From an uncultured Candidatus Saccharibacteria bacterium (GTDB taxonomy: Bacteria; Patescibacteriota; Minisyncoccia; Phycocordibacterales; Phycocordibacteraceae), in the NCBI GenBank assembly GCA_964415875.1, contig CAYQCB010000001.1, positions 1 to 48,069 on the forward strand: a stretch of 48,069 bases of DNA, read 5' to 3'. The notes beneath the pieces are model-generated. The model was not told the DNA's origin. It worked only from the letters and a program-made list of their open reading frames with translations, and did no database searches. Below, piece by piece: positions 2,274 to 46,707 of this stretch (the first letter of the stretch is position 1; every line of letters starts with the position of its first letter). The translations under genes and the position numbers were made by a program.

Positions 2274-2704
2274 TTAGTAAGAGACTCACTCTTCGAGAGC
2301 CGATATGACTTTATATACCTCCAGACGACCAAGACAAAGGTAACTACGGAGAATACCTGCCCCGCAAGTTCTGCAGCATTCACTCGATAAAACGGAAAAG
2401 GGTCGAGAAAGGTGCCGGGCGCCTGCATAACGGGAGTTAGCACAATGAACAGAACTGCGATTATTGTGTAATATGGCACAAATCTCAGCCAAGAACGGAA
2501 TATCGACTCCTTGACGAAAAGAGTGAGCAGAACTGCCGGCCAGGCATACAAAAAGAAGTAGTAAACTGGCTGAGTAAATGGTTCATGGAAGCGATCGATC
2601 CATGTGCCATAACAGGTACGATTCGTAATTATGCACCAATAACTTACAGGAGCGGAAATCAGCCCTAAAAATGTAAGCACTACTGACGCTATCTTAGTGT
2701 TCAT
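2270..2704 (-). CDS. small membrane protein (about 4 TM), paralogue of 1257-2273
   Basis: 144-aa hydrophobic ORF with the shared FPFYR..AAE motif. Overlaps the stop of the upstream lipase gene by 11 nt. Confidence 0.6.
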   Translation of the reverse strand: MNTKIASVVLTFLGLISAPVSYWCIITNRTCYGTWIDRFHEPFTQPVYYFFLYAWPAVLLTLFVKESIFRSWLRFVPYYTIIAVLFIVLTPVMQAPGTFLDPFPFYRVNAAELAGQVFSVVTFVLVVWRYIKSYRLSKSESLTK

Positions 2705-5700
2705 AATTTTGAGTAACGAGCAATTTTAATTCTTCAAGCATAGCAGTAATTTCTTGGGCTTCTTGAGGAGATACAGTGTTTTGTGGGGCACGGGCTTGCC
2801 AACGGCTCGGCATTTTTGAGGTGATTGAGAGATACTTTTCGAGCGCCTCGATCTGAAACACAATTGTACGGGCGAGTATTTTTTCAATCCCAACAGAGAT
2901 CTTTTTCCGCAAACCCTTCAGAGCACTATCCCGCGTAGACATTGTATCTATGAGCGCGAGATTTCTATTAATTCCTTTCAACTGCGTATCTAGCTGCCGT
3001 TGCATGTTCTTTGATAAGCTAAGCGTTACAACGGCTTTCTCCATATAGGAGATATAGTCTGTGGCTGATACGGCTTCTGTAAATTGCGTCGTCGTACCCA
3101 CACTTGGCTTAATGGCGAAGTCTGCACTACCGTCGCCATTTTCGTCCACCGACAACGCTGAAGCGTCGGCTATGCCGTTTGAAATAGTTAAGTGTACCGT
3201 GGTGCTGGTCGAAACAGGCACATCTGCAATAGTTGCTGTGGCCACGAGTGTCCCCCCAAGAGACTCCTCAATGTCGAGTGAGAACATGCCTGAGGCCAGT
3301 CCACTTAAGTTCAACTGGTATTGACTGCCTGCTGGAGCAATCAGATACTGCACCTCTCCAAACTGGCCGTACTGCGCACCAGGAATGTTTTCTGTAACAG
3401 TGCTGCTTGCGGACAAGCCTGTCGTTTCGCCTTCAGCGTTACTCAACTGAAGAGTGAGTGGAGAGTGGAGGATGAATATGAGTTTTTTATCTTGGGTCAG
3501 GGGAGTAGGAGAGCTTGTCGATATTCCGAATGGTAGGGCATTTTGAGTTGACCCAAGCAAACTGGCAATTAAATCTCCGAGTTGGGTTACTCCAAAAATA
3601 TTTGCATGTGATATTTTAGATTTTTGCGCTTTGTTTATTGAATGTAAATCGACCCAAAACCGTTTTACATTTGTACTGCTCGCCATAGCGAGGGCGCTCG
3701 GCACCGGAACAGTACCATCCCCGTCCTCCGTGAAAATTGGTATATATGAGCGCGGTTGTTCCTCAAACGCCACTGCTGGACCTGCAGCAGACTTGGTTCC
3801 GTACATGGTGTAGAAATCTATTCCGGCCACAGTGTCTATTCCCCACCCTGCAATTTGGTCAACCTCAATACCCGTTGGAGGCACCCAGCGGTCGAGTGTA
3901 TTGTGAATGGTGTTTGCATATTGCACGAGCGCTGAATTTGCGATTTCTGGATCTTTCAAGTCACTCGCCTCAGGGTCTGCTCGCGACGCCAGCGTCCCCA
4001 AAAGAAAATTATCAAACGTATCTCTATCTATTATAGAATTCCCATATGCAGCCTCTTCAGCAGCATAGGCCGGCCCCGAGAAATGCACCACGGGGTGGGT
4101 CGGCTCAGTAATAATCGAGGTGAAGTAGTCCACCGACGGCAACAAGTGATAGGCCATCGGAGAGTTCTGTGCGAGTGCTCTCGCGGCAGCATTTGAAACA
4201 ACACCAATACCGTAATCATAAATGCCGGCATTGTAACCAAGCAGAAGACTGCCAACGGCTGCAGGCGCGCCAGTTTGCGGTACGGCAACCATGATCACGC
4301 GGTCTACCAAAGTAGCGGCCTGGTTGCCAAGGCGTGCGAGCAACGCCTTGGCAACCAGGCCGCCATTTGAGTGCGCAATGATGGTCACCTTCCCTGTTTT
4401 CGAACTGGCAGCCAAACGCCGCAGCATTTGTTCAATATACGGCGTGTCAGTGGCCGTCGCATAGTTAATGTTGCCATTCGTCTCTGCGCCCCTCGTAAGC
4501 AAATCGTTCAGTGACAGCCGCCAGTCATACGCCGCAGGGGACCAATCGTTTATGGTGCCCGCCGCTTTGAGCGATTGCATTTGATCAATAACTGGCTGAT
4601 ATATGGCGCCACCAGCCGAGTCAATAATGTCGCCGTCCTTTGCGTAGATGTCCGAGCATTCGCTTTTACCAGACGTGGTAAGTGCTAATTTAGCAACCTT
4701 TGAGTCGCCCGCACCAAAGACCACTCCCCAAAAACCAGAATACGGCTCCCACAACTTCTCTTCAGCAGTGCCACCACACGCCGTCCCCTCATACAACCGA
4801 CTGCCCTCAATGCCCGGTAGAAAAAGCACGTTGTCAGTGCACGCTCCAGGCACCGCACAGGGATCTGGCACCGATGGGTCCACCGTGAGCCATGGAGTGT
4901 ACGTAACAGCCCCCTCTATGCCATTTCCGCTTCCAGCCACATTCGCTAGCGTGTCATGCGGCCCCGAGGCACTGCCCCACCAATCATCTCGAGCATCGAT
5001 AGCGGTACTCGCGTCATTTAATACGCCGAGATCTGTATTGTCGTGAATGCTTGAATCGTGTACCACGACTGAGTCATGGCCTTCCGAATACATGCCCGTT
5101 GCATTGTGATCGATTTCACTGTGTGCAACCAAAAGAGAACCTCCTCTCATATAGATGCCGTCGTCTGTGTTATTAAAAATGTGCGTGTTGTGCAACGTAA
5201 GCATCCCTCCAGCAACCGTTATACCGACTTCGTGATTTGAGACCTGCGAATCAGAAAGCGTGGTAGTACCAGACCACTGGCCAAAACCGTCATATGCATT
5301 GTGCGTGAAGGTCATGTGCGAAAGCATCAGCACTCCTCCAGCATTTGCTATTCCTGTACGAGGAACAGGTGTGATATACCCGCCACCATAGCGAACAGTC
5401 GCGTACGAGACCGTACCACTTGAGCCTGGCTCAAATTCCACATGCATCCATTGTCCGTCGGTTGGCGTACTACTTGCCTCTCCACTGGTAAGGCCACCAA
5501 CAGAATCATCCTCTGTCGACGTGAAAAAGATGGGACTATCTGCTGTCCCCTCTGCCACAAGCGCTCCATACACCAGCATTCCGTTTTCTTTCCCAAATTT
5601 CACCACAACGCCAGGATCAATATGGAGCGATGCACCAGCCAACACACTGAACAAAGTCACGCCATTGTAAGTCCGCGGCATTTCTACAACGTACGGACTC

Positions 5701-5855
5701 TCGGAAAGTGTCCAGTGAGTGTCAGTAGCAATATTACTTGTGACCGCCGTTGCCGCACGCGCGGACACGGGGAAACCGCAGCATCCGACAATTGCCAAGA
5801 CTGCAGTGAGCCCTATTCGTCTGGGCATGCGCAAGCGCATGGCGAGCCCCTTCAT
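2694..5855 (-). CDS. secreted parallel beta-helix protein fused to an LCAT/lipase-type alpha/beta hydrolase, with a C-terminal coiled coil
   Basis: Signal peptide RIGLTAVLAIVGCCGFPVSARA. The start is probably the MKGL Met at 5855; the ORF is open to 5918. PbH1-like repeats (HNTHIFNNTDDGIYM, HSEIDHNATGMY, HDSSIHDNTDLGV) end in DDWWG. Then YDWR and the nucleophile elbow IIAHSNGG. Confidence 0.8.
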   Translation of the reverse strand: MKGLAMRLRMPRRIGLTAVLAIVGCCGFPVSARAATAVTSNIATDTHWTLSESPYVVEMPRTYNGVTLFSVLAGASLHIDPGVVVKFGKENGMLVYGALVAEGTADSPIFFTSTEDDSVGGLTSGEASSTPTDGQWMHVEFEPGSSGTVSYATVRYGGGYITPVPRTGIANAGGVLMLSHMTFTHNAYDGFGQWSGTTTLSDSQVSNHEVGITVAGGMLTLHNTHIFNNTDDGIYMRGGSLLVAHSEIDHNATGMYSEGHDSVVVHDSSIHDNTDLGVLNDASTAIDARDDWWGSASGPHDTLANVAGSGNGIEGAVTYTPWLTVDPSVPDPCAVPGACTDNVLFLPGIEGSRLYEGTACGGTAEEKLWEPYSGFWGVVFGAGDSKVAKLALTTSGKSECSDIYAKDGDIIDSAGGAIYQPVIDQMQSLKAAGTINDWSPAAYDWRLSLNDLLTRGAETNGNINYATATDTPYIEQMLRRLAASSKTGKVTIIAHSNGGLVAKALLARLGNQAATLVDRVIMVAVPQTGAPAAVGSLLLGYNAGIYDYGIGVVSNAAARALAQNSPMAYHLLPSVDYFTSIITEPTHPVVHFSGPAYAAEEAAYGNSIIDRDTFDNFLLGTLASRADPEASDLKDPEIANSALVQYANTIHNTLDRWVPPTGIEVDQIAGWGIDTVAGIDFYTMYGTKSAAGPAVAFEEQPRSYIPIFTEDGDGTVPVPSALAMASSTNVKRFWVDLHSINKAQKSKISHANIFGVTQLGDLIASLLGSTQNALPFGISTSSPTPLTQDKKLIFILHSPLTLQLSNAEGETTGLSASSTVTENIPGAQYGQFGEVQYLIAPAGSQYQLNLSGLASGMFSLDIEESLGGTLVATATIADVPVSTSTTVHLTISNGIADASALSVDENGDGSADFAIKPSVGTTTQFTEAVSATDYISYMEKAVVTLSLSKNMQRQLDTQLKGINRNLALIDTMSTRDSALKGLRKKISVGIEKILARTIVFQIEALEKYLSITSKMPSRWQARAPQNTVSPQEAQEITAMLEELKLLVTQNYEH

Positions 5856-6023
5856 ATTTTTACCGTAACATATGAAATACGTGCGCAAGTCACCGGGTGT
5901 GGAAAGATGCGAAACCAAAACAGGACACTCCTTTTACTTACGGCTTCACAAGTTTACCCACACACCCTCTCCCTGTGCACAGAGCGTGGCACTGCGTAGC
6001 CTCAAGAGGGTACACTGTACGCA

Positions 6024-7700
6024 ATGACTCCTGACGAACTCAAGAAACATATACAAGGCGCTATACAAGGAGAAGTAAAAGACGATGCCGAGTCACTTAA
6101 AAAAGCGAGCCGCGATACTTCTCTTTTCGTGCGAGTACCAGAACTCGTCGTGTGCCCAAAGGACACCGCGGACGTGTGCGCCATTGTGAAAGCCGTGAGC
6201 GCCTCTCATGCTGCTGGTAGCGGCGCTGTGCTTGCTGCGCGCTCGGCCGGTACCGACATGAGCGGCGGCCCGCTCACTACTGGCGTCGTCGTCTCCTTCA
6301 CTGAACACATGAATCGCGTGCTTTCGGTTGAAGCTGACGCCTTGGGTGGTGTAGCTGAAACAGAGCCTGGTGTGTTCTACCGAGATTTTGAAGTGGAAAC
6401 GCTCAAAAAAGATCTCATACTTCCCTCCTTTCCTGCCTCTCGTGAGCTCTGTGCCATGGGCGGTATTGTCTCAAACAACTCGGGCGGCGAACGCACGCTC
6501 GAGTACGGCAAGACAGAAAAATATGTCGAGGAGCTTGACGTGGTGCTCTCCGACGGATCAACTGCCACCTTTAAAGCGCTCACTCCCTCCGAACTCTCTG
6601 AAAAGAAAAAACTCGAGACGCTTGAGGGGAAGATATACCGAGACATGCACGCGCTCGTCATCAACTCCGCAGAAGTCATTTCGGCGCACCGCCCCAAGGT
6701 TTCAAAAAACTCGGCTGGTTACGCGCTCTGGAGCATCCTCGACTCGAAAACCGGACTTTTCAACCTCGCAAAACTCATCGTTGGCTCGCAAGGCACGCTC
6801 GCTCTCTGGACGCGAGCAAAGTTGCGCCTCGTGAAGCCAAAAGATCACCGCGCCATGCTGGTGGTCTTCCTCTACGAGCTCACGCACCTCCCTGAAATCG
6901 TAGAGAAGGTGCTCCCGTTGCGCCCTGAGTCGTTTGAGAGCTACGACAATCACACCTTTGAGCTTGCTGTGAAATTTTTGCCCGAGATGCTCTCGCAAAT
7001 GGGCTTCGTAAAAGCCGCTCGACTCGGCATTGATTTCATCCCTGAGGCCGCTATGGTCGCCACCGGCGGCGTTCCTCAAATGATTCTCATGGCTGAATTT
7101 GCGGAAGACACTATAGAAGAGGCAGACCGAAAGGCGCTTGCGGCACAAAAAGCCCTCGAAGGATTCCATGTGCGCACAAAAATTGAGAAGAACGAAAAGG
7201 AATCCGAGAAATACTGGATCGTCCGTCGAGAAAGTTTCTCCCTCTTGCGCAAGAGCCTCCACGGCATGTACGCTTCGCCGTTTATCGACGACTTTGTGGT
7301 GCCTCCGTCGTGCTACCCGAGCTTCTTGCCCAAACTTGAAGCGATTCTCCAAGAATATAAGTCACACTTCGTGTACACCGTCGCCGGGCACATTGGCAAT
7401 GGTAACTTCCACATCATTCCGCTCATGGATCTCTCAAAGGCAGAGAATCGCGCCATCGTACTCGAGCTGGCGCCAAAAGTGTATGAGCTCGTCATTTCTG
7501 AGGGTGGCACCACCACCGGCGAACACAACGACGGCATCATCCGCACGCCGTACCTCTCCATGCTTTTTGGAAAAGACATGGTGGCGCTTTTCGAAGAAAC
7601 AAAAAAGACGTTTGATCCGCAAAACATTTTCAATCCGGGCAAAAAAGTGGGCGGCACGTTTGAGGACATCAAAAACGACATGATACAAGACGTCGATTAG
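6024..7700 (+). CDS. FAD-binding oxidoreductase (GlcD / D-lactate dehydrogenase-like)
   Basis: 558 aa. N-terminal FAD-binding PCMH-type region (AARSAGTDMSGGPL) and C-terminal FAD-oxidase region (GGTTTGEHNDGIIR). Confidence 0.8.
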   Translation: MTPDELKKHIQGAIQGEVKDDAESLKKASRDTSLFVRVPELVVCPKDTADVCAIVKAVSASHAAGSGAVLAARSAGTDMSGGPLTTGVVVSFTEHMNRVLSVEADALGGVAETEPGVFYRDFEVETLKKDLILPSFPASRELCAMGGIVSNNSGGERTLEYGKTEKYVEELDVVLSDGSTATFKALTPSELSEKKKLETLEGKIYRDMHALVINSAEVISAHRPKVSKNSAGYALWSILDSKTGLFNLAKLIVGSQGTLALWTRAKLRLVKPKDHRAMLVVFLYELTHLPEIVEKVLPLRPESFESYDNHTFELAVKFLPEMLSQMGFVKAARLGIDFIPEAAMVATGGVPQMILMAEFAEDTIEEADRKALAAQKALEGFHVRTKIEKNEKESEKYWIVRRESFSLLRKSLHGMYASPFIDDFVVPPSCYPSFLPKLEAILQEYKSHFVYTVAGHIGNGNFHIIPLMDLSKAENRAIVLELAPKVYELVISEGGTTTGEHNDGIIRTPYLSMLFGKDMVALFEETKKTFDPQNIFNPGKKVGGTFEDIKNDMIQDVD

Positions 7701-18559: not shown

Positions 18560-18609
18560 CCGGGAATACAAAAGGGCCGCGCGTAAGCGCGGCCCTTTTG
18601 TATTCCCGG
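18560..18609. terminator. perfect 23-bp inverted repeat, bidirectional terminator
   Basis: CCGGGAATACAAAAGGGCCGCGC-gtaa-GCGCGGCCCTTTTGTATTCCCGG, between convergent genes. Confidence 0.75.
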
Positions 18610-20522: not shown

Positions 20523-21359
20523 ATGACCAAAGACGAGCAGTGGGTGCTGGAGGAGAAATATGGAGGGACGCCAGGCGCGGCGTTTGAGTCAGACAAAGGC
20601 CGGCTCGCCCTTGGCGAGCCGGTGGCCTATGTGATTGGCTCACAGCCCTTTCTCGGGCTCACGGTGTACCTCGACTCCCACCCGCTCATTCCCCGCAGCG
20701 AGACCGAGTGGTGGACGGAGCAACTCATTACCACTCTCACCCCCCAGAGCACCACAGGTGCGATTTCTGAGGCTCTGCGCAGGCCGACGGGCCGAGCAGG
20801 AGGAAAGTTTTTAGCAAAAAACTATTCCGTACTCAGAAATCACGCCAGTGGTGCTCCCCTTACCTTTCTCGACCTCTGCGCCGGCTCTGGCGCCATCGGC
20901 TGTGCTGCTCTCAAAACGTTACCGGACGCACACGTGACCTTTGCGGAAATTGAGCCTGCGCACAAAGAAACCATCATTAAAAACATTCGAGAAAACAACC
21001 TTGATTCGGACAGAGCAGAGATTGTTGTCGGTGACTTATTCGCACCACTTGCCAACCGCCGCTTCGACGTGATTGCGTGCAACCCGCCCTACATCCCTAC
21101 TGCACGCTCTCTTGAAAAGAGTGTTGCGGACTTTGAGCCACCTGCTGCACTTTTCTCGGGCAGCGAAGGACTCGACCTCATTCGCCGCATCGCTCTCGAG
21201 CTACCCGCACACCTCACAGAAAGAGGTAGTGCGTGGATCGAGTGTGACAGTGCCCACGCAGATGTTGCTGCAGCACTCTTTAGCGCCCAAGGATTCTCCA
21301 CAGAAGTCCGTAACGACCAGTACGGTGTGCAGAGAGTGCTGGTGGTATCATTTCCCTAA
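20523..21359 (+). CDS. prmC: release-factor glutamine N5-methyltransferase carrying an in-frame repeat-element insertion
   Basis: SAM motif LDLCAGSGAIG and catalytic NPPY (IACNPPYIP). An extra segment of about 27 aa is encoded by the repeat at 20762-20841. Confidence 0.85.
   Translation: MTKDEQWVLEEKYGGTPGAAFESDKGRLALGEPVAYVIGSQPFLGLTVYLDSHPLIPRSETEWWTEQLITTLTPQSTTGAISEALRRPTGRAGGKFLAKNYSVLRNHASGAPLTFLDLCAGSGAIGCAALKTLPDAHVTFAEIEPAHKETIIKNIRENNLDSDRAEIVVGDLFAPLANRRFDVIACNPPYIPTARSLEKSVADFEPPAALFSGSEGLDLIRRIALELPAHLTERGSAWIECDSAHADVAAALFSAQGFSTEVRNDQYGVQRVLVVSFP
20762..20841. repeat. palindromic element, copy 1 (inside prmC)
   Basis: 10-bp terminal inverted repeat GATTTCTGAG/CTCAGAAATC around a 60-nt core that is 53/60 identical to 39327-39386. 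Confidence 0.85.
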
Positions 21360-38611: not shown

Positions 38612-39262
38612 TTATTTGTCCAATCGCCAGGAGTCGATTTTTGCATGATTGCCAGTCTTAAGGACGGGTGGCACCTTATAGGTCTTCTTTTTGTGAACTA
38701 TGACATCAGGACGTGTATACACAGCATGAGACGCGACGCGCCGTTCTTCCACAGACTCGTCTTTGCCGAGCACACCTGGAATGCGTCGCGTAACGGCGTC
38801 GACGATTGCAAGCGCTGGAATTTCGCCGCCAGTATACACAGCCTCTCCTACGGAAAACTCTTTCACCGGTGCAATCGTTTTCAAAATGTTTTTAGCTCGC
38901 TCGTCGATGCCCTCGTAACGCCCGCACACAAGCACAACGTCGTCGTAGGCAAGCAGGGCGTCTGCGTCCTTGTTGCTAAATTGTTTAGCGTCCGGGCGAA
39001 ACCACACAATCACGCGCTTGCCGCGCTTGCGACCAATGGCTTTCTCTACAGCTTTCACCACAGGCAATGCCTGCATCACCATACCCGGGCCGCCGCCGTA
39101 GGGGCGCTCATCTACTTTGCCCCAACGATTACTCACAAAGGTACGCGGGGAAAAATAAGAGATTGACATCTTCTTTTCGGTGCGCGCTCGTCCCACTATG
39201 GAAGCCGAAAGATACGCGTCGCACGCGTCTTCAAAAAGGGTGATGAGGTGAAAGCGAATCAT
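38612..39262 (-). CDS. trmD: tRNA (guanine37-N1)-methyltransferase
   Basis: Start at MIRFHLITLFED. DERPYGGGPGMVM. The ORF is open to 39307, but that extension runs into the repeat element. Confidence 0.85.
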   Translation of the reverse strand: MIRFHLITLFEDACDAYLSASIVGRARTEKKMSISYFSPRTFVSNRWGKVDERPYGGGPGMVMQALPVVKAVEKAIGRKRGKRVIVWFRPDAKQFSNKDADALLAYDDVVLVCGRYEGIDERAKNILKTIAPVKEFSVGEAVYTGGEIPALAIVDAVTRRIPGVLGKDESVEERRVASHAVYTRPDVIVHKKKTYKVPPVLKTGNHAKIDSWRLDK

Positions 39263-39304
39263 AAATAGCACCGTCTTTTTATCAAACTCTGACCCTCTTC
39301 TGTG

Positions 39305-39408
39305 CAAGAGGCGAATGATTGGTGAGGCTCTGCGCAGAGCGACGGCTCGAGCAGGAGGAAAATTTTTAGTAAAAAATTATTCCGTACTCACCAATCATCC
39401 GCCTCTTG
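39305..39408. repeat. palindromic element, copy 2 (intergenic, between KH-protein gene and trmD)
   Basis: 22-bp terminal inverted repeat with one mismatch (CAAGAGGCGAATGATTGGTGAG / CTCACCAATCATCCGCCTCTTG) around the same 60-nt core. Confidence 0.85.
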
Positions 39409-39412
39409 CGAC

Positions 39413-39739
39413 TCATGCCGACAAATCGTCGATTACCTGATCAATAGTCTTCCCTTCAGGATCGCCTGCCTGCGCAGTCAGACGCTTGCCGCCGACCGGC
39501 TCATTTATTTTCAAACTCACACGCGCATTATGCTTCATGCCCACCGCCGTAAGGAGCGGGCGAATTGCGCCATTTGCGAGCTTTCCGCCCTTACCAATGA
39601 CCTTGCCCATGTCGTCTGGGTGCACACGCATCGTCAGCAATACGCCCAAGTTGTCCACAGTGCGCTCAATATGCACATCGTCGGGGTGATCGACGATGGC
39701 TTTTATTACGTACTCGAGAAAAGCTACTTCCGGTTCCAT
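39413..39739 (-). CDS. KH-domain RNA-binding protein (YlqC/UPF0109-like)
   Basis: Start MEPEVAFLEYVIKAIVDHPDDV. GKVIGKGGK GXXG loop. Conserved position after rpsP. Confidence 0.75.
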   Translation of the reverse strand: MEPEVAFLEYVIKAIVDHPDDVHIERTVDNLGVLLTMRVHPDDMGKVIGKGGKLANGAIRPLLTAVGMKHNARVSLKINEPVGGKRLTAQAGDPEGKTIDQVIDDLSA

Positions 39740-39789
39740 AGGTAATAGATTAGGAAAACGCAGACCCAAAGCCAAAGCGCCGTCAGACG

Positions 39790-42718: not shown

Positions 42719-44932
42719 CTATTTCGCTACCGCGACCGCTTCTTCAAATTTCACTGAGAGCAGTTTTGAAATGCCGTCATTTCCCATCGTGACTCCGTAG
42801 AGAATACCCGCGCGACTCATCGTCTCTCTGTTGTGGGTGATCACAATAAGCTGACTTTTCTTTGCAAGGTTTTCAATCATGTCGCCATAGCGACGACTAT
42901 TGGCTTCGTCGAGAGCAGCATCGGTTTCGTCAAGTATCAAGAACGGTGGCGGGTTCACCTGACTCATAGCAAAAATAAGTGCAATAGAGGTGAGCGCACG
43001 CTCGCCGCCCGAGAGTTGCATGAGTGAACGTACTTTTTTCTTTGGCAGGTTCACGGCAATTTCAATGCCAGGGCGTTGCACATCCTTCTTCTCCTCGCTC
43101 TCCATGCCCTCTTCCTCGTCCTCCTCACCAAGTGTTCCTCGACTCACCTCTTCAAGCACGAGTCGTGCGCCGCCACCATCAAACATGAGACTAAAATACT
43201 CTCCAAAAGAATCATTCACCTTCACCAACCCTTCGGTGAATTGCTTTGCCAGCTCTGTATTCAAATCATCTATGAGTGCTCTCAAGCCATCGGCCGATTG
43301 CGAGAGGTCAGTGAGCTCTCGCGCCAGAAATACCTCTCGCTCCGAGACGTCCTTGTGCTCAGCTCGTATGTCCTCGCCCGTGCCGCCCGCTTCCTCGAGA
43401 CGAATCTTCGTACGCTCAAGCAAGCGTTTGCGATCCTCTTGCGTGCGACGCTCCTCCTCGGGCAGCTGGGAGAGCGGTTCGTAAGAAATAGCAGCGTGTC
43501 CCACAAGCGCATACACTTCCGTTTTATCTCTATCCAGCGCACCATTCAAAAGACCTAACTCGTGCGTGCGTGCTTCGCACGCACGCAGAACGCTCTCTGC
43601 ACTTGCCTTTGCTTGCGCCAAATCGAGAATGCGGCGCCGCACCTCCTTGCCCGTTTCTTCATGCGCCACCATGGCCTCGCGCACTCTGCCCCGAGCAGCC
43701 TCAGCCTCCTCAAGCGTCGCACTTGCCGCCGAAAACTTAACCGCGAGCGCCGCGCGCTTCTGCTCAAGCGCAAGTGCGGAATTCTCCTCTTCGGAGAGAT
43801 ACGCGTCTTGCGGTGCCCCATGCTTTGAAAAAAACAGCGTCATAGCGGAGCGGATAGCGGCAAGCGCCGCACGCAAACCCTCACGCTCCTCTCCGGCAGT
43901 GTCAGTTTGCCGCAAGACCTCTTCATGGAGCGCCTGTAATTCTTCACGAGGAACCTTTGCATACGGGTCACGTGCTGCTACCTGCGCACGACGCTTCACT
44001 TCTTCAAGCGCGCCCTCAATACGCCCTATCTCGCGCGAAAGCAGCGCCTTCTCAGAAAGTGCATCTGACACGCGCGTTTCCGCGCTGCGCAGAGCCTCAC
44101 TCCGCTGCACCGTCTCCGCATCCGCCTGGCTCGGGTCGGCAACTCGATTAAGTTCCGCGCTTGTCGCCGTGAACTGCTCTTGGGCTTCTTGCTGTTGTGT
44201 TTCAATGCGTTTTTTCTCAGTGGCGAGGTAGAGATCTTCTATAGCAAAGTACGTCTGCGCAAGTGCGCTCAACTCTTTACGCAACGCGTCGGCACGCTCG
44301 AGCTTTTCCACTTGTTTCTCAAGAAAGCGCAAGTGAGGCGTAAGCTCTCGGCGCAGAGACTCGACGCGACTGATGTTTTCTGAAGTCTTCTCAAGCTTCC
44401 GGAGCGCTTCCTGTTTTTTAAATTCATAGAGGCGAAGCCCCAGAGCGTCCTCGAGCATGGCTCGTCGGTCTCGCGGACTGGAAAGCAAAATACGATCCGC
44501 TTCGCCTTGCGAAATAATGTGGTGGCCCGTGTCCCCAATGTTAGCTCCAGCCAGAAGCTCTTCAATATCGCGCAGCCGCACGCGCGTGCCGTTTATCGAG
44601 TACTCGCTCGTGCCATCGCGAAAGACGGCGCGCTCAATACTCACCTCATCAAAATCAATTTTAAATGTGCGCTTTGTATTATCAAAGACAATGGCGACGG
44701 CAGCGCGGTTTGCTCTCGGTATGGAGTGCGACCCGCCCCAGATAAGGTCTTCAGTGCGCTTCCCGCGCATGCTTTTCATGGACTGCTCGCCGAGCGCAAA
44801 ACGAAATGCCTCAGCTACGTTCGATTTACCGGAGCCGTTTGGCCCCACCACGGCAGTGGTGGCTGTCGAGAAGTCCAGAACCGTTTTCTTGGCGAAGGAT
44901 TTAAATCCGGCGATTTCAAGTCGCTTCAGCAT
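42719..44932 (-). CDS. smc: SMC-family ATPase, short form without a recognisable hinge
   Basis: N-terminal head LEIAGFKSFA...VVGPNGSGKSN. C-terminal head LSGGERALTSIALIFAM, FLILDETDAALD, LIVITHN, ILYGVTM. Only 737 aa. Confidence 0.75.
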   Translation of the reverse strand: MLKRLEIAGFKSFAKKTVLDFSTATTAVVGPNGSGKSNVAEAFRFALGEQSMKSMRGKRTEDLIWGGSHSIPRANRAAVAIVFDNTKRTFKIDFDEVSIERAVFRDGTSEYSINGTRVRLRDIEELLAGANIGDTGHHIISQGEADRILLSSPRDRRAMLEDALGLRLYEFKKQEALRKLEKTSENISRVESLRRELTPHLRFLEKQVEKLERADALRKELSALAQTYFAIEDLYLATEKKRIETQQQEAQEQFTATSAELNRVADPSQADAETVQRSEALRSAETRVSDALSEKALLSREIGRIEGALEEVKRRAQVAARDPYAKVPREELQALHEEVLRQTDTAGEEREGLRAALAAIRSAMTLFFSKHGAPQDAYLSEEENSALALEQKRAALAVKFSAASATLEEAEAARGRVREAMVAHEETGKEVRRRILDLAQAKASAESVLRACEARTHELGLLNGALDRDKTEVYALVGHAAISYEPLSQLPEEERRTQEDRKRLLERTKIRLEEAGGTGEDIRAEHKDVSEREVFLARELTDLSQSADGLRALIDDLNTELAKQFTEGLVKVNDSFGEYFSLMFDGGGARLVLEEVSRGTLGEEDEEEGMESEEKKDVQRPGIEIAVNLPKKKVRSLMQLSGGERALTSIALIFAMSQVNPPPFLILDETDAALDEANSRRYGDMIENLAKKSQLIVITHNRETMSRAGILYGVTMGNDGISKLLSVKFEEAVAVAK

Positions 44933-45044: not shown

Positions 45045-45740
45045 TCACCACCCGCGTGCAAGCAACCCCGCGTGAGCGGCCGACTGCTCTGCTTCCTGTT
45101 TGCTCTGCCCTTCTCCGCGAGCAATCTCTTCCTTCCCGATGAACACGCCGACTGTGAAGTGCTTGTCGTGATCGGGTCCCGCCTCGGCAAGCGTCTCGTA
45201 GTTAGGTGTAATGCCCTGGTGCTCTTGCGCTGCTTCTTGGAAACGACTCTTTGCGTCCTGGTACGAACGCTTCGCGATAACGTCATCAATTTTCCCGTAC
45301 AAATTGTGTGCGATAAATTTCTCTGCGGCGGCAAACCCTTGGTCAAGGTAGATGGCACCGATAATCGCTTCAAAAGCATCCGCCAAGATGACGTCGCGTG
45401 CTCTCCCCGTGTCGCGCGACTCGCCTTTTGAGAGCAATAAATAATCATTGGCTCCGATCAGTTGTGCGCTCTGTGCAAGCGAAACCGTGTTCACGAGCGC
45501 GGAACGAAATGCCGTGAGCTCGCCCTCCGGTTTTGCCGGAAACTTCTTAAAAAGAAAATCGGTCGCAGCAAGCTCGAGCACAGCGTCTCCCAAAAACTCG
45601 AGACGCTCATTGTGCGAGCCGGCGTGTTCGCGGTGCTCGTTTAAGTACGAACGATGCGTCAAGGCCTCGGCAAGAAGACCGAGGTTGTTAAACGTGACGC
45701 CAATTGAGGAAGCAAAAGTAGTGAAATCAGGCATGAGCAC
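45045..45740 (-). CDS. rnc: ribonuclease III
   Basis: Signature NERLEFLGDAVLEL and a C-terminal dsRBD. Confidence 0.9.
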   Translation of the reverse strand: MLMPDFTTFASSIGVTFNNLGLLAEALTHRSYLNEHREHAGSHNERLEFLGDAVLELAATDFLFKKFPAKPEGELTAFRSALVNTVSLAQSAQLIGANDYLLLSKGESRDTGRARDVILADAFEAIIGAIYLDQGFAAAEKFIAHNLYGKIDDVIAKRSYQDAKSRFQEAAQEHQGITPNYETLAEAGPDHDKHFTVGVFIGKEEIARGEGQSKQEAEQSAAHAGLLARGW

Positions 45741-46626: not shown

Positions 46627-46707
46627 TGAAAGATCTGTTACCTCTTGAGTATAGCAAACAACAAGGCCGCGCAAGCGCGGCCTTGTTGTTTTCCGTGGAT
46701 TATAAAA

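Follow-up and report, generated by a model that had tools for sequence, protein, structure and literature searches.

A palindromic element with a conserved three-way junction and copy-specific arms in the KH–trmD spacer and in prmC of a Candidatus Saccharibacteria bacterium

The genomes of CPR bacteria (Patescibacteria) are tiny and leave little space for repeats; to our knowledge, very little is known about the mobile DNA and non-coding elements of these bacteria. Among described repeats, REPs are palindromes of 20–40 nt that are tagged at one end by the tetranucleotide GTAG or CGTC and whose doublets form REPINs. MITEs (Correia, ERIC, BOX) are small elements with inverted-repeat ends and without transposase; direct repeats may mark their ends, and they can form part of transcripts and serve as substrates of RNase III. 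Long stems are also found in the intervening sequences of rRNA genes that are removed by RNase III. Rickettsia palindromic elements (RPEs) are palindromic repeats of ~100–150 nt that form a long hairpin and have no transposase attached. They are scattered through intergenic regions and RNA genes and also occur in frame in essential protein genes, whose ORF is left intact, and palindromic insertion of this kind within genes is established (PMC10969869). REP/REPIN sequences, which RAYT enzymes (IS200-like Y1 HUH) mobilise, are non-autonomous extragenic palindromes located just after genes and forming ssDNA or RNA hairpins, for which a link to the lagging-strand template is plausible (PMC3733652, PMC6006769). 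An association with the replication strand is known for the ssDNA transposition of IS200/IS605 elements (PMC5027513, PMC6006769). Finally, attC sites, in which structure is conserved and stem sequence varies, are recombined as folded single strands in an orientation tied to replication (PMC5371416).

A palindromic element that resembles each of these systems in part was found twice in the window, i.e. the whole stretch of 48,069 nt that was analysed, from an uncultured Candidatus Saccharibacteria bacterium (assembly GCA_964415875.1, contig CAYQCB010000001.1). The features concerned are the following.

39303 to 39410, no strand assigned: palindromic element copy 2, whole unit (39305–39408 of the first-pass annotation plus two further pairs; model R1, 110.4 bits, E 2e-33)
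39303 to 39326, no strand assigned: copy 2 outer stem P1, 5' arm
39327 to 39386, no strand assigned: copy 2 60-nt core, three-way junction
39387 to 39410, no strand assigned: copy 2 outer stem P1, 3' arm (one A/C mismatch with the 5' arm)
39413 to 39775, − strand: KhpA-like KH-domain gene (PF13083)
38612 to 39262, − strand: trmD (PF01746)
39315 to 39440, + strand: 41-codon ORF through copy 2, judged not to be a gene
20747 to 20856, no strand assigned: palindromic element copy 1 (covariance model, 115.5 bits), in frame in prmC
20523 to 21359, + strand: prmC/hemK (release-factor glutamine methyltransferase), host gene of copy 1 (PF05175, PF03602; names as given by the sources)
45045 to 45740: rnc (RNase III), encoded in the window

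Exhaustive scoring of the whole window with the covariance model returned these two copies and no more. They share a repeat of 81 nt (20762–20842 and 39317–39397, both on the + strand). In copy 1 the 60-nt core (20772–20831) is enclosed by an outer inverted repeat (20747–20771 with 20832–20856), and in copy 2 the corresponding repeat (39303/39305–39326 with 39387–39408/39410) makes up the long outer stem noticed at first sight, of 22–24 bp with one mismatch. The core of copy 2 contains helix P2a (39329–39333 paired with 39351–39355), hairpin 1 (39337–39348, GAGC-GACG-GCTC) and helix P3a with hairpin 2 (39357–39383, GGAA-AATTTTT-AGTA-AAAAATT-A-TTCC). The fold put forward in the first-pass annotation, a closing stem around two hairpins, was upheld, except that the AGGAGG described as single-stranded proved to be mostly paired (GGAA/TTCC, GCAGG/TCTGC). 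Both copies fold at −59 to −63 kcal/mol on either strand (z −6.5 to −9.8), with values for copy 2 of −58.9 on the + strand and −60.4 on the − strand (z about −9.5 to −9.8 against dinucleotide shuffles).

Alignment of the two cores confirmed that they differ at seven positions (12, 13, 20, 21, 36, 44 and 51), six of which constitute the compensated pairs 12/21, 13/20 and 36/51, the seventh (44) lying in the loop of hairpin 2. The inner part of the outer stem also covaries as had been proposed, TTTCTGAG/CTCAGAAA in one copy corresponding to TTGGTGAG/CTCACCAA in the other, so that the stems are kept through compensated changes at all three stem differences of the core and at two more in the inner outer stem. 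Further out, the distal stems of copies 1 and 2 are unrelated sequences, each of which pairs (25 nt at 88% in copy 1); in the 5' arm of copy 2, the inner ~10 nt (GATTGGTGAG) are similar to other family members, and the distal part (GCAAGAGGCGAAT) is found in no other copy. Two window copies that are 86% identical over 81 nt might be taken for the product of a recent duplication, their compensated differences being due to chance. This explanation is contradicted by the compensation just described and by the unrelated distal stems, as well as by ~26 further copies in other genomes that obey the same rule, the observed score being reached in 0 of 500 shuffles. The probability of such a duplication is considered negligible, and chance compensation following it is refuted by the covariation in copies from other genomes together with the comparison of the cores.

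Further copies were sought by two exact-pattern scans, which gave 14 loci in species-representative genomes and 14 in metagenomes; these scans demanded exact junction words, so that conservation of the junction is partly forced. Counting those recovered through protein context, ~28 distinct copies are known in all, every one in Patescibacteria/CPR MAGs or metagenome contigs, with a lineage named for part of the records. All genome-scan records that name a lineage are Patescibacteria/CPR (Saccharibacteria, Paceibacterota, Parcubacteria, Kaiserbacteria), the remaining ones being labelled just 'bacterium', and organism names are lacking for the metagenome contigs. No copy was detected by blastn in phage and plasmid collections, none of 52 loci matching a loose pattern in 490 kb of viral contigs was confirmed by the covariance model, and ~390 kb of flanking loci contained no extra copies. 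With Rfam 15, no family matched the whole window at the gathering threshold, and no tRNA or other Rfam family reached threshold in the 48 kb; the element itself, at E ≤ 10, matched only generic miRNA-hairpin models, at ≤23 bits versus gathering scores of 62–90. Inspection of both strands by eye for hammerhead, twister and pistol ribozyme cores gave nothing convincing, in agreement with the blank Rfam result, and no description of this repeat family was found in the literature.

In the + reading, the unit consists, from 5' to 3', of a P1 arm, GGCTCTGCGCAG, hairpin 1, CGAGCAGGAGGAAA, hairpin 2, TATTCCGTAC and the second P1 arm. The outer stem P1 measures 17–30 bp across copies, hairpin 1 has a stem of 3–7 bp and a loop GACG, TTG or similar, and hairpin 2 has a stem of 6–7 bp and an AGCA loop. 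Pairing of TCTGC with GCAGG and of GGAA with TTCC produces a compact three-way junction. A conserved centre of ~80 nt is thereby defined, comprising the inner stem and the junction with its two small hairpins. Within P1 only the inner ~10 bp are alike between copies, the distal 10–20 bp being unique to each copy, and no two non-orthologous copies share a distal stem. Folding energies in the family range from −45 to −80 kcal/mol (z about −6.5 to −10). In L005 (78–307) and L022 (1–305), the KH gene is followed by two or three units in tandem, repeated every 116 nt, and the contigs end within the array. Loci L017 and L021 have mismatched arms, with the 5' arm from one copy and the 3' arm from another, which points to recombination or to assembly chimeras.

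This architecture sets the element apart from the systems cited above. REPIN stems are conserved between copies, unlike those of the element, which also occurs inside genes; its alignment shows no terminal GTAG or CGTC tag, CGTC appearing only as the complement of the hairpin 1 loop GACG, and no RAYT was seen within the window. The terminal repeats of MITEs are conserved and match a parent IS, whereas here conserved terminal inverted repeats are absent, the distal arms vary and there is no known parent IS. In attC sites the terminal core sites are conserved and the structure is a bulged hairpin, as opposed to the conserved centre, unconserved ends and three-way junction found here; moreover, the neighbours of the copies are housekeeping genes, with no integrase or cassette array beside them. 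The likeness to RPEs, which belong to another host phylum, is one of behaviour and not of compared sequences. RPEs occupy dozens of genes, as against a low copy number and two protein genes (prmC and dnaE) here, and the present element differs further in its conserved centre, its copy-specific arms and a reading frame that varies between orthologues.

A MAFFT alignment of 24 copies (912 stem cells, 38 pairs) contained 92.4% standard pairs, versus 72.7% in column shuffles and 42–53% with partners slid. Double changes were observed in 24 of the 38 pairs, and the covariation score was 0.524 versus 0.155, with no shuffle out of 500 reaching the observed value. When diverged prmC copies were included, 95.5% of cells were paired, double changes affected 30 of the 38 pairs and the otherwise invariant helix GGAA/TTCC became GGCG/CGCC; this enlarged alignment was fitted to the covariance model and hence leans towards structure. 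Over both alignments, shuffles were paired at 71–73% and slid partners at 40–53%. Orthologous copies behave likewise: window copy 1 and L029 are separated by three compensated pairs in P1 and two in hairpin 2, and L006 and L030 by four compensated pairs in P1, with none half-changed. Over 24–28 copies, drawn from other genomes, stem-disrupting changes were not as frequent as compensatory ones, and the covariation first seen in the window is borne out on the larger sample.

It had also been argued that selection acts on structure rather than on sequence. The structural part of that claim holds, but the element is not free of sequence constraint, since the junction and inner helices are conserved in orthologous copies. 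Third-position identity at conserved four-fold residues was 0.25–0.37 for lepA (L006/L026), groEL (L002/L013) and the KH gene (window/L005), and 0.55 for prmC (window/L029). The syntenic hosts are saturated at synonymous sites, and the junction and inner helices of their copies are still unchanged. A protein-based sample of prmC, free of search-pattern bias, comprised canonical copies in the window, L029 and L090 (97–121 bits) and strongly diverged ones in L084–L086 (50–63 bits), the fold being always kept.

The kind of pairs that are tolerated bears on the molecule under constraint. Of 1003 stem cells, 941 were Watson-Crick, the rest being 18 G.T, 11 A.C and 33 other mismatches (~6% non-Watson-Crick). 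G.T was about as frequent as A.C and rarer than the other mismatches; the ratio of G.T to A.C was 9 to 5 in sense-transcribed and 9 to 6 in antisense-transcribed copies, and G.U counts were equal on both strands. Orientation with respect to transcription was antisense at 11 and sense at 5 independent positions, a difference that is not significant. The window itself holds one of each, as originally proposed: copy 1 is sense inside prmC, and copy 2, in the KH/trmD spacer of a minus-strand operon, would be transcribed antisense relative to it. The + reading strand had a negative GC skew in 25 of 29 loci, copies sense to their host gene included, and skew was negative on the + strand over the whole window (1–48069); the rule is broken by L003, within a ribosomal-protein operon, and skew is confounded with gene orientation. 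This pattern would fit a rule tied to the replication strand. Combined, the Watson-Crick purity, the occurrence of both orientations and the skew argue that the pairing belongs to the DNA, or to both strands, and not to a single RNA. The features expected of a functional RNA, namely G.U tolerance on the transcribed strand and constant orientation, were not displayed by the element, and of the two molecules first envisaged, folded RNA or ssDNA, the ~6% of non-Watson-Crick cells and the two orientations favour palindromy at the DNA level. Template-switch correction of quasi-palindromes, an established mutational route (PMC7202029), would allow pairing to be kept while the sequence of the arms drifts.

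Purely Watson-Crick pairing, conserved loops and junction, an orientation that follows GC skew even in copies sense to their gene, and low-copy, dispersed positions often beside housekeeping genes might equally be expected of a host site working as ssDNA or cruciform on the lagging-strand template (in priming, replication restart, segregation or topology) and read by a junction-recognising protein. One would not expect to find such a site within coding sequence or rRNA insertions, nor that close relatives should variously have it, lack it or carry another palindrome family in its place, and the skew that it invokes is the one confounded with gene orientation and violated at L003. A host ssDNA site is for these reasons judged quite unlikely.

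Copy 1 adds ~36 residues (STTGAISEALRRPTGRAGGKFLAKNYSVLRNHASGA) to a variable linker of PrmC, and in-frame copies were found in prmC of the window, L029, L084–L086 and L090. Among 121 PrmC homologues, the linker between PR.ETE and DL.G.G measured 17–21 aa in ~20–25 and 43–71 aa in most others, and the DNA of ten homologues was examined for the insert. Three palindromic families occupy the same linker site: the canonical one and two unrelated others, one in L087 (303–512) and L088 (6754–6942) and another in L083 (10187–10321). L029 (2925–3128) carries a remnant 5' arm of a second family beside the canonical element. The class of insert was distributed patchily with respect to PrmC similarity, being shared with the nearest PrmC neighbour in only 30 of 117 cases, versus 16% expected by chance, and empty-site proteins were up to 85–87% identical to filled ones. 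Comparison with the empty site of L089 showed that the whole 108 nt of the window prmC copy are extra. The L090 copy has a 5' arm that overlaps the conserved codons for WWTEQL, suggesting that the distal stem derives from native flanking sequence; this was rejected as a general rule on account of the wholly extra window copy. The prmC site is a hot spot at which inserts turn over, being gained, lost and replaced, as befits a mobile or unstable element and not a fixed host signal.

In dnaE (DNA polymerase III alpha), in-frame copies lie inside the HHH_6 region (L024, 2249–2362; L011, 1697–1810), inserted between ..FTVV and IRFGL of the helix-hairpin-helix region with a switch from frame A to frame C. 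We infer from the usual DnaE at that position that these copies are likewise wholly extra.

A shared + strand frame (the ORF from ATG 39315 to TGA 39440 does exist in copy 2) had been proposed as a candidate for selection on the peptide. This was not sustained: three readings of the same element exist among prmC orthologues, namely frame A (ISEALRRPTGRAGG.F...YSVL), frame C (..EEAIFQQKN.P) and a mixed one that passes from B to A, so that conservation applies to the nucleotide fold but not to the peptide. A small protein encoded by 39315–39440 was rejected, as frames differ between copies. Protein searches with a concatenated six-frame query found the + frame peptide in PrmC proteins and in one ORF judged spurious, lying over the copy downstream of lepA. 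The 36-aa peptide had a single match among 1.84 billion representatives, judged unrelated without inspection, and minus-frame peptides had nothing at E ≤ 10; such short peptides are near the detection limit of protein databases, and the dnaE host was found through DNA context only. Across all loci, a 60-nt core has on average 4.8 of its 6 frames free of stop codons, versus 2.7 in shuffles, and seven copies are open in all six frames, database proteins showing + frame peptides only.

Neighbouring genes of the copies were checked with Pfam. Intergenic copies mostly start ~0–20 nt past a stop codon. They directly follow those of lepA (L006, L026, L030), clpB (L001, L012, L016), recA (L007), gyrB (L008), ftsW (L009), dnaB (L010) and the KhpA-like gene (window copy 2, L005, L022). 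Other spacer copies lie between rpmE and prfA (L004), between cysS and dnaB (L014) and upstream of groES (L002, L013), and the L003 copy lies within its ribosomal-protein operon. In 16S rRNA genes, copies are found ~10 nt inside the 5' boundary of large insertions, at 5447–6187 in L027 and at 6930–7716 in L028 (same sequence as L015); the insertion points are after GGATTA of the GGATTAGATACCC site and after ACTGAGA, and no group I intron matched at those places. Apart from the palindromic element and a LAGLIDADG ORF, the L015/L028 insertion contains very little. As compared with the rRNA intervening sequences removed by RNase III, the element forms just the first ~130 nt of much larger insertions with LAGLIDADG or other ORFs, and most of its copies are outside rRNA.

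Positions after stop codons and at the edge of 16S insertions, conservation of the junction at syntenic sites, a very stable fold on both strands and an RNase III encoded in the window would all suit a host RNA module, in which the long stem serves as an RNase III processing site or 3' stabiliser in operons and rRNA precursors and the junction binds a protein that directs processing, for instance in the release of rRNA insertions or the separation of KH from trmD. Several results speak against it. The copies lie in both orientations relative to transcription and there is no wobble enrichment on the transcribed strand. Translation runs through the in-frame copies of prmC and dnaE, where a cut would destroy an essential mRNA. 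Between close relatives, elements are gained, lost and exchanged at the prmC site, no Rfam family matches, and copy 2 has no U-tract after its stem. A host RNA module is accordingly regarded as unlikely. Nevertheless, the syntenic conservation of the junction and the position by rRNA-insertion boundaries lend RNA-processing and ssDNA-site roles some residual probability.

Copy 2 itself accounts for 104–108 nt of the ~150-nt spacer between the stop codon of the KH gene (39413–39415) and the start of trmD, its stem beginning 3–4 nt past that stop codon. Judging from the N-terminal sequence, trmD probably starts at ATG 39262 and not at TTG 39307, which would overlap the element. A promoter-like site lies near the trmD start (39285–39258, − strand). 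In a Kaiserbacteria MAG, the tandem copies that follow the KH gene (L005, L022) are syntenic with copy 2. The stem is flanked by CTTCTGT and GACTCAT, with no U-tract after it and no terminator listed; lacking a U-tract, copy 2 is not a canonical terminator. Derivation of the distal stem from a pre-existing terminator is plausible for some copies, given the long perfect hairpins that the window has at gene ends, and unsupported for copy 2, which has no A/T tracts. Copy 2 would be a passenger in the rpsP–KH–trmD operon. Once transcribed it is predicted, and probably so, to be an RNase III substrate: its transcript would form a duplex of about −60 kcal/mol, plausibly cut by that enzyme, which would be a side effect and not the reason for its existence.

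The element is most likely a selfish DNA hairpin and not a functional RNA. We consider it somewhat probable that copy 2 belongs to a low-copy, non-autonomous family of palindromic DNA elements specific to Patescibacteria/CPR and similar to RPEs or to REPINs/MITEs. The dispersed and unrelated contexts of the copies, and the differences among close relatives in the presence, absence and family of the prmC insert, argue for this reading. Against it stand the low copy number (two in 48 kb) and the retention of the junction at syntenic positions (lepA, KH, groES, clpB) in synonymous-saturated hosts; a decaying selfish copy should not keep its junction unless refreshed by re-insertion or gene conversion, and this counts against a selfish nature. 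No transposase, RAYT or IS200-like gene was present among the window ORFs checked, and no transposase or parent IS among the ORFs scanned in the 48-kb window and in loci of up to 20 kb.

As a selfish hairpin, the element would be, or would have been, mobilised in trans as a folded single strand of DNA, its conserved centre acting as the part recognised by a putative enzyme that may prefer a CGAG target and possibly existing hairpins. In ~10 copies, CGAG direct repeats are found exactly at the base of the stem (CGAG|stem...stem|CGAG). By a loose count they occur in 12 of 30 copies versus a background of 7.6%, constant and not variable, which again differs from the variable duplications flanking MITEs; neither window copy has them. 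The arms would stay paired largely through DNA-level processes, namely template-switch correction together with selection to fold as ssDNA, and not through selection on RNA. Given that no distal stem is common to non-orthologous copies, simple cutting or copying of the whole unit does not explain the arms. They could have originated from old copies drifting under template-switch correction, from units inserted at the tips of older elements or of hairpins already present, or from a palindrome that grew outwards. The combination of a constant centre with perfectly paired arms that differ from locus to locus would also be explained either by a CPR-wide nucleic-acid signal, with an invariant junction read by a dedicated protein on ssDNA or on both transcripts, or by a new kind of mobile element that rebuilds its arms at each site through hairpin-templated copying or homing into hairpin tips. 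These ideas are offered tentatively, as rather improbable ones.

Palindromes inside genes are already known from RPEs (PMC10969869). What differs here is the conserved centre with copy-specific arms, the three-way junction, the frame shifts between orthologues, the link to 16S insertions and the genome-reduced host phylum. Tolerance of palindromic elements in essential genes (prmC, dnaE) and in rRNA insertions is not confined to Rickettsia. The family provides a clean natural case in which many compensated changes preserve a nucleic-acid structure and the reading frame of the encoded peptide can change freely, and a warning that strong covariation alone is no proof of a functional RNA. The conserved junction offers a handle for finding the putative enzyme or binding protein. 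In practice, the elements break assemblies, contigs ending in tandem copies, and they create spurious ORFs and inflate protein lengths in CPR annotations.

Other palindromes and related features were observed in the window, ~70% of whose coding sequence is on the − strand. A 16-mer, GTGAGGCTCTGCGCAG, at 44085–44100 (− strand), within an SMC-like ORF (42719–44932), matches the 5' junction of copy 2 exactly and is followed by a CGCG-GAAA-CGCG hairpin at the place of hairpin 1, in frame (..SEALRSAETR..); the covariance model scored 44045–44120 at 8.9 bits only (E 2.1), and the 16-mer may be what is left of a third copy in inverted orientation, or may match the junction by coincidence at the codon level. 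Two perfect hairpins, at 18560–18609 (23 bp) and 46656–46691 (16 bp), have a common centre, GGCCGCGC-loop-GCGCGGCC, flanked by runs of A and T. Both have the appearance of bidirectional terminators, the first being placed between two converging genes, and very long perfect stems are kept at gene ends in this genome. A perfect 21-bp palindrome with a 7-nt loop (4315–4363) was found inside an ORF of 1074 aa (2694–5918, − strand) with LCAT and beta-helix domains and is possibly another small in-frame palindromic insert. Lastly, two similar hairpins (CTGCGGACACGCCGTGTCCACAG and CTGAGGACACGCCGTGTCCTCAG), 69 nt apart, are located at 1130–1231, after a gene that ends at 1100.
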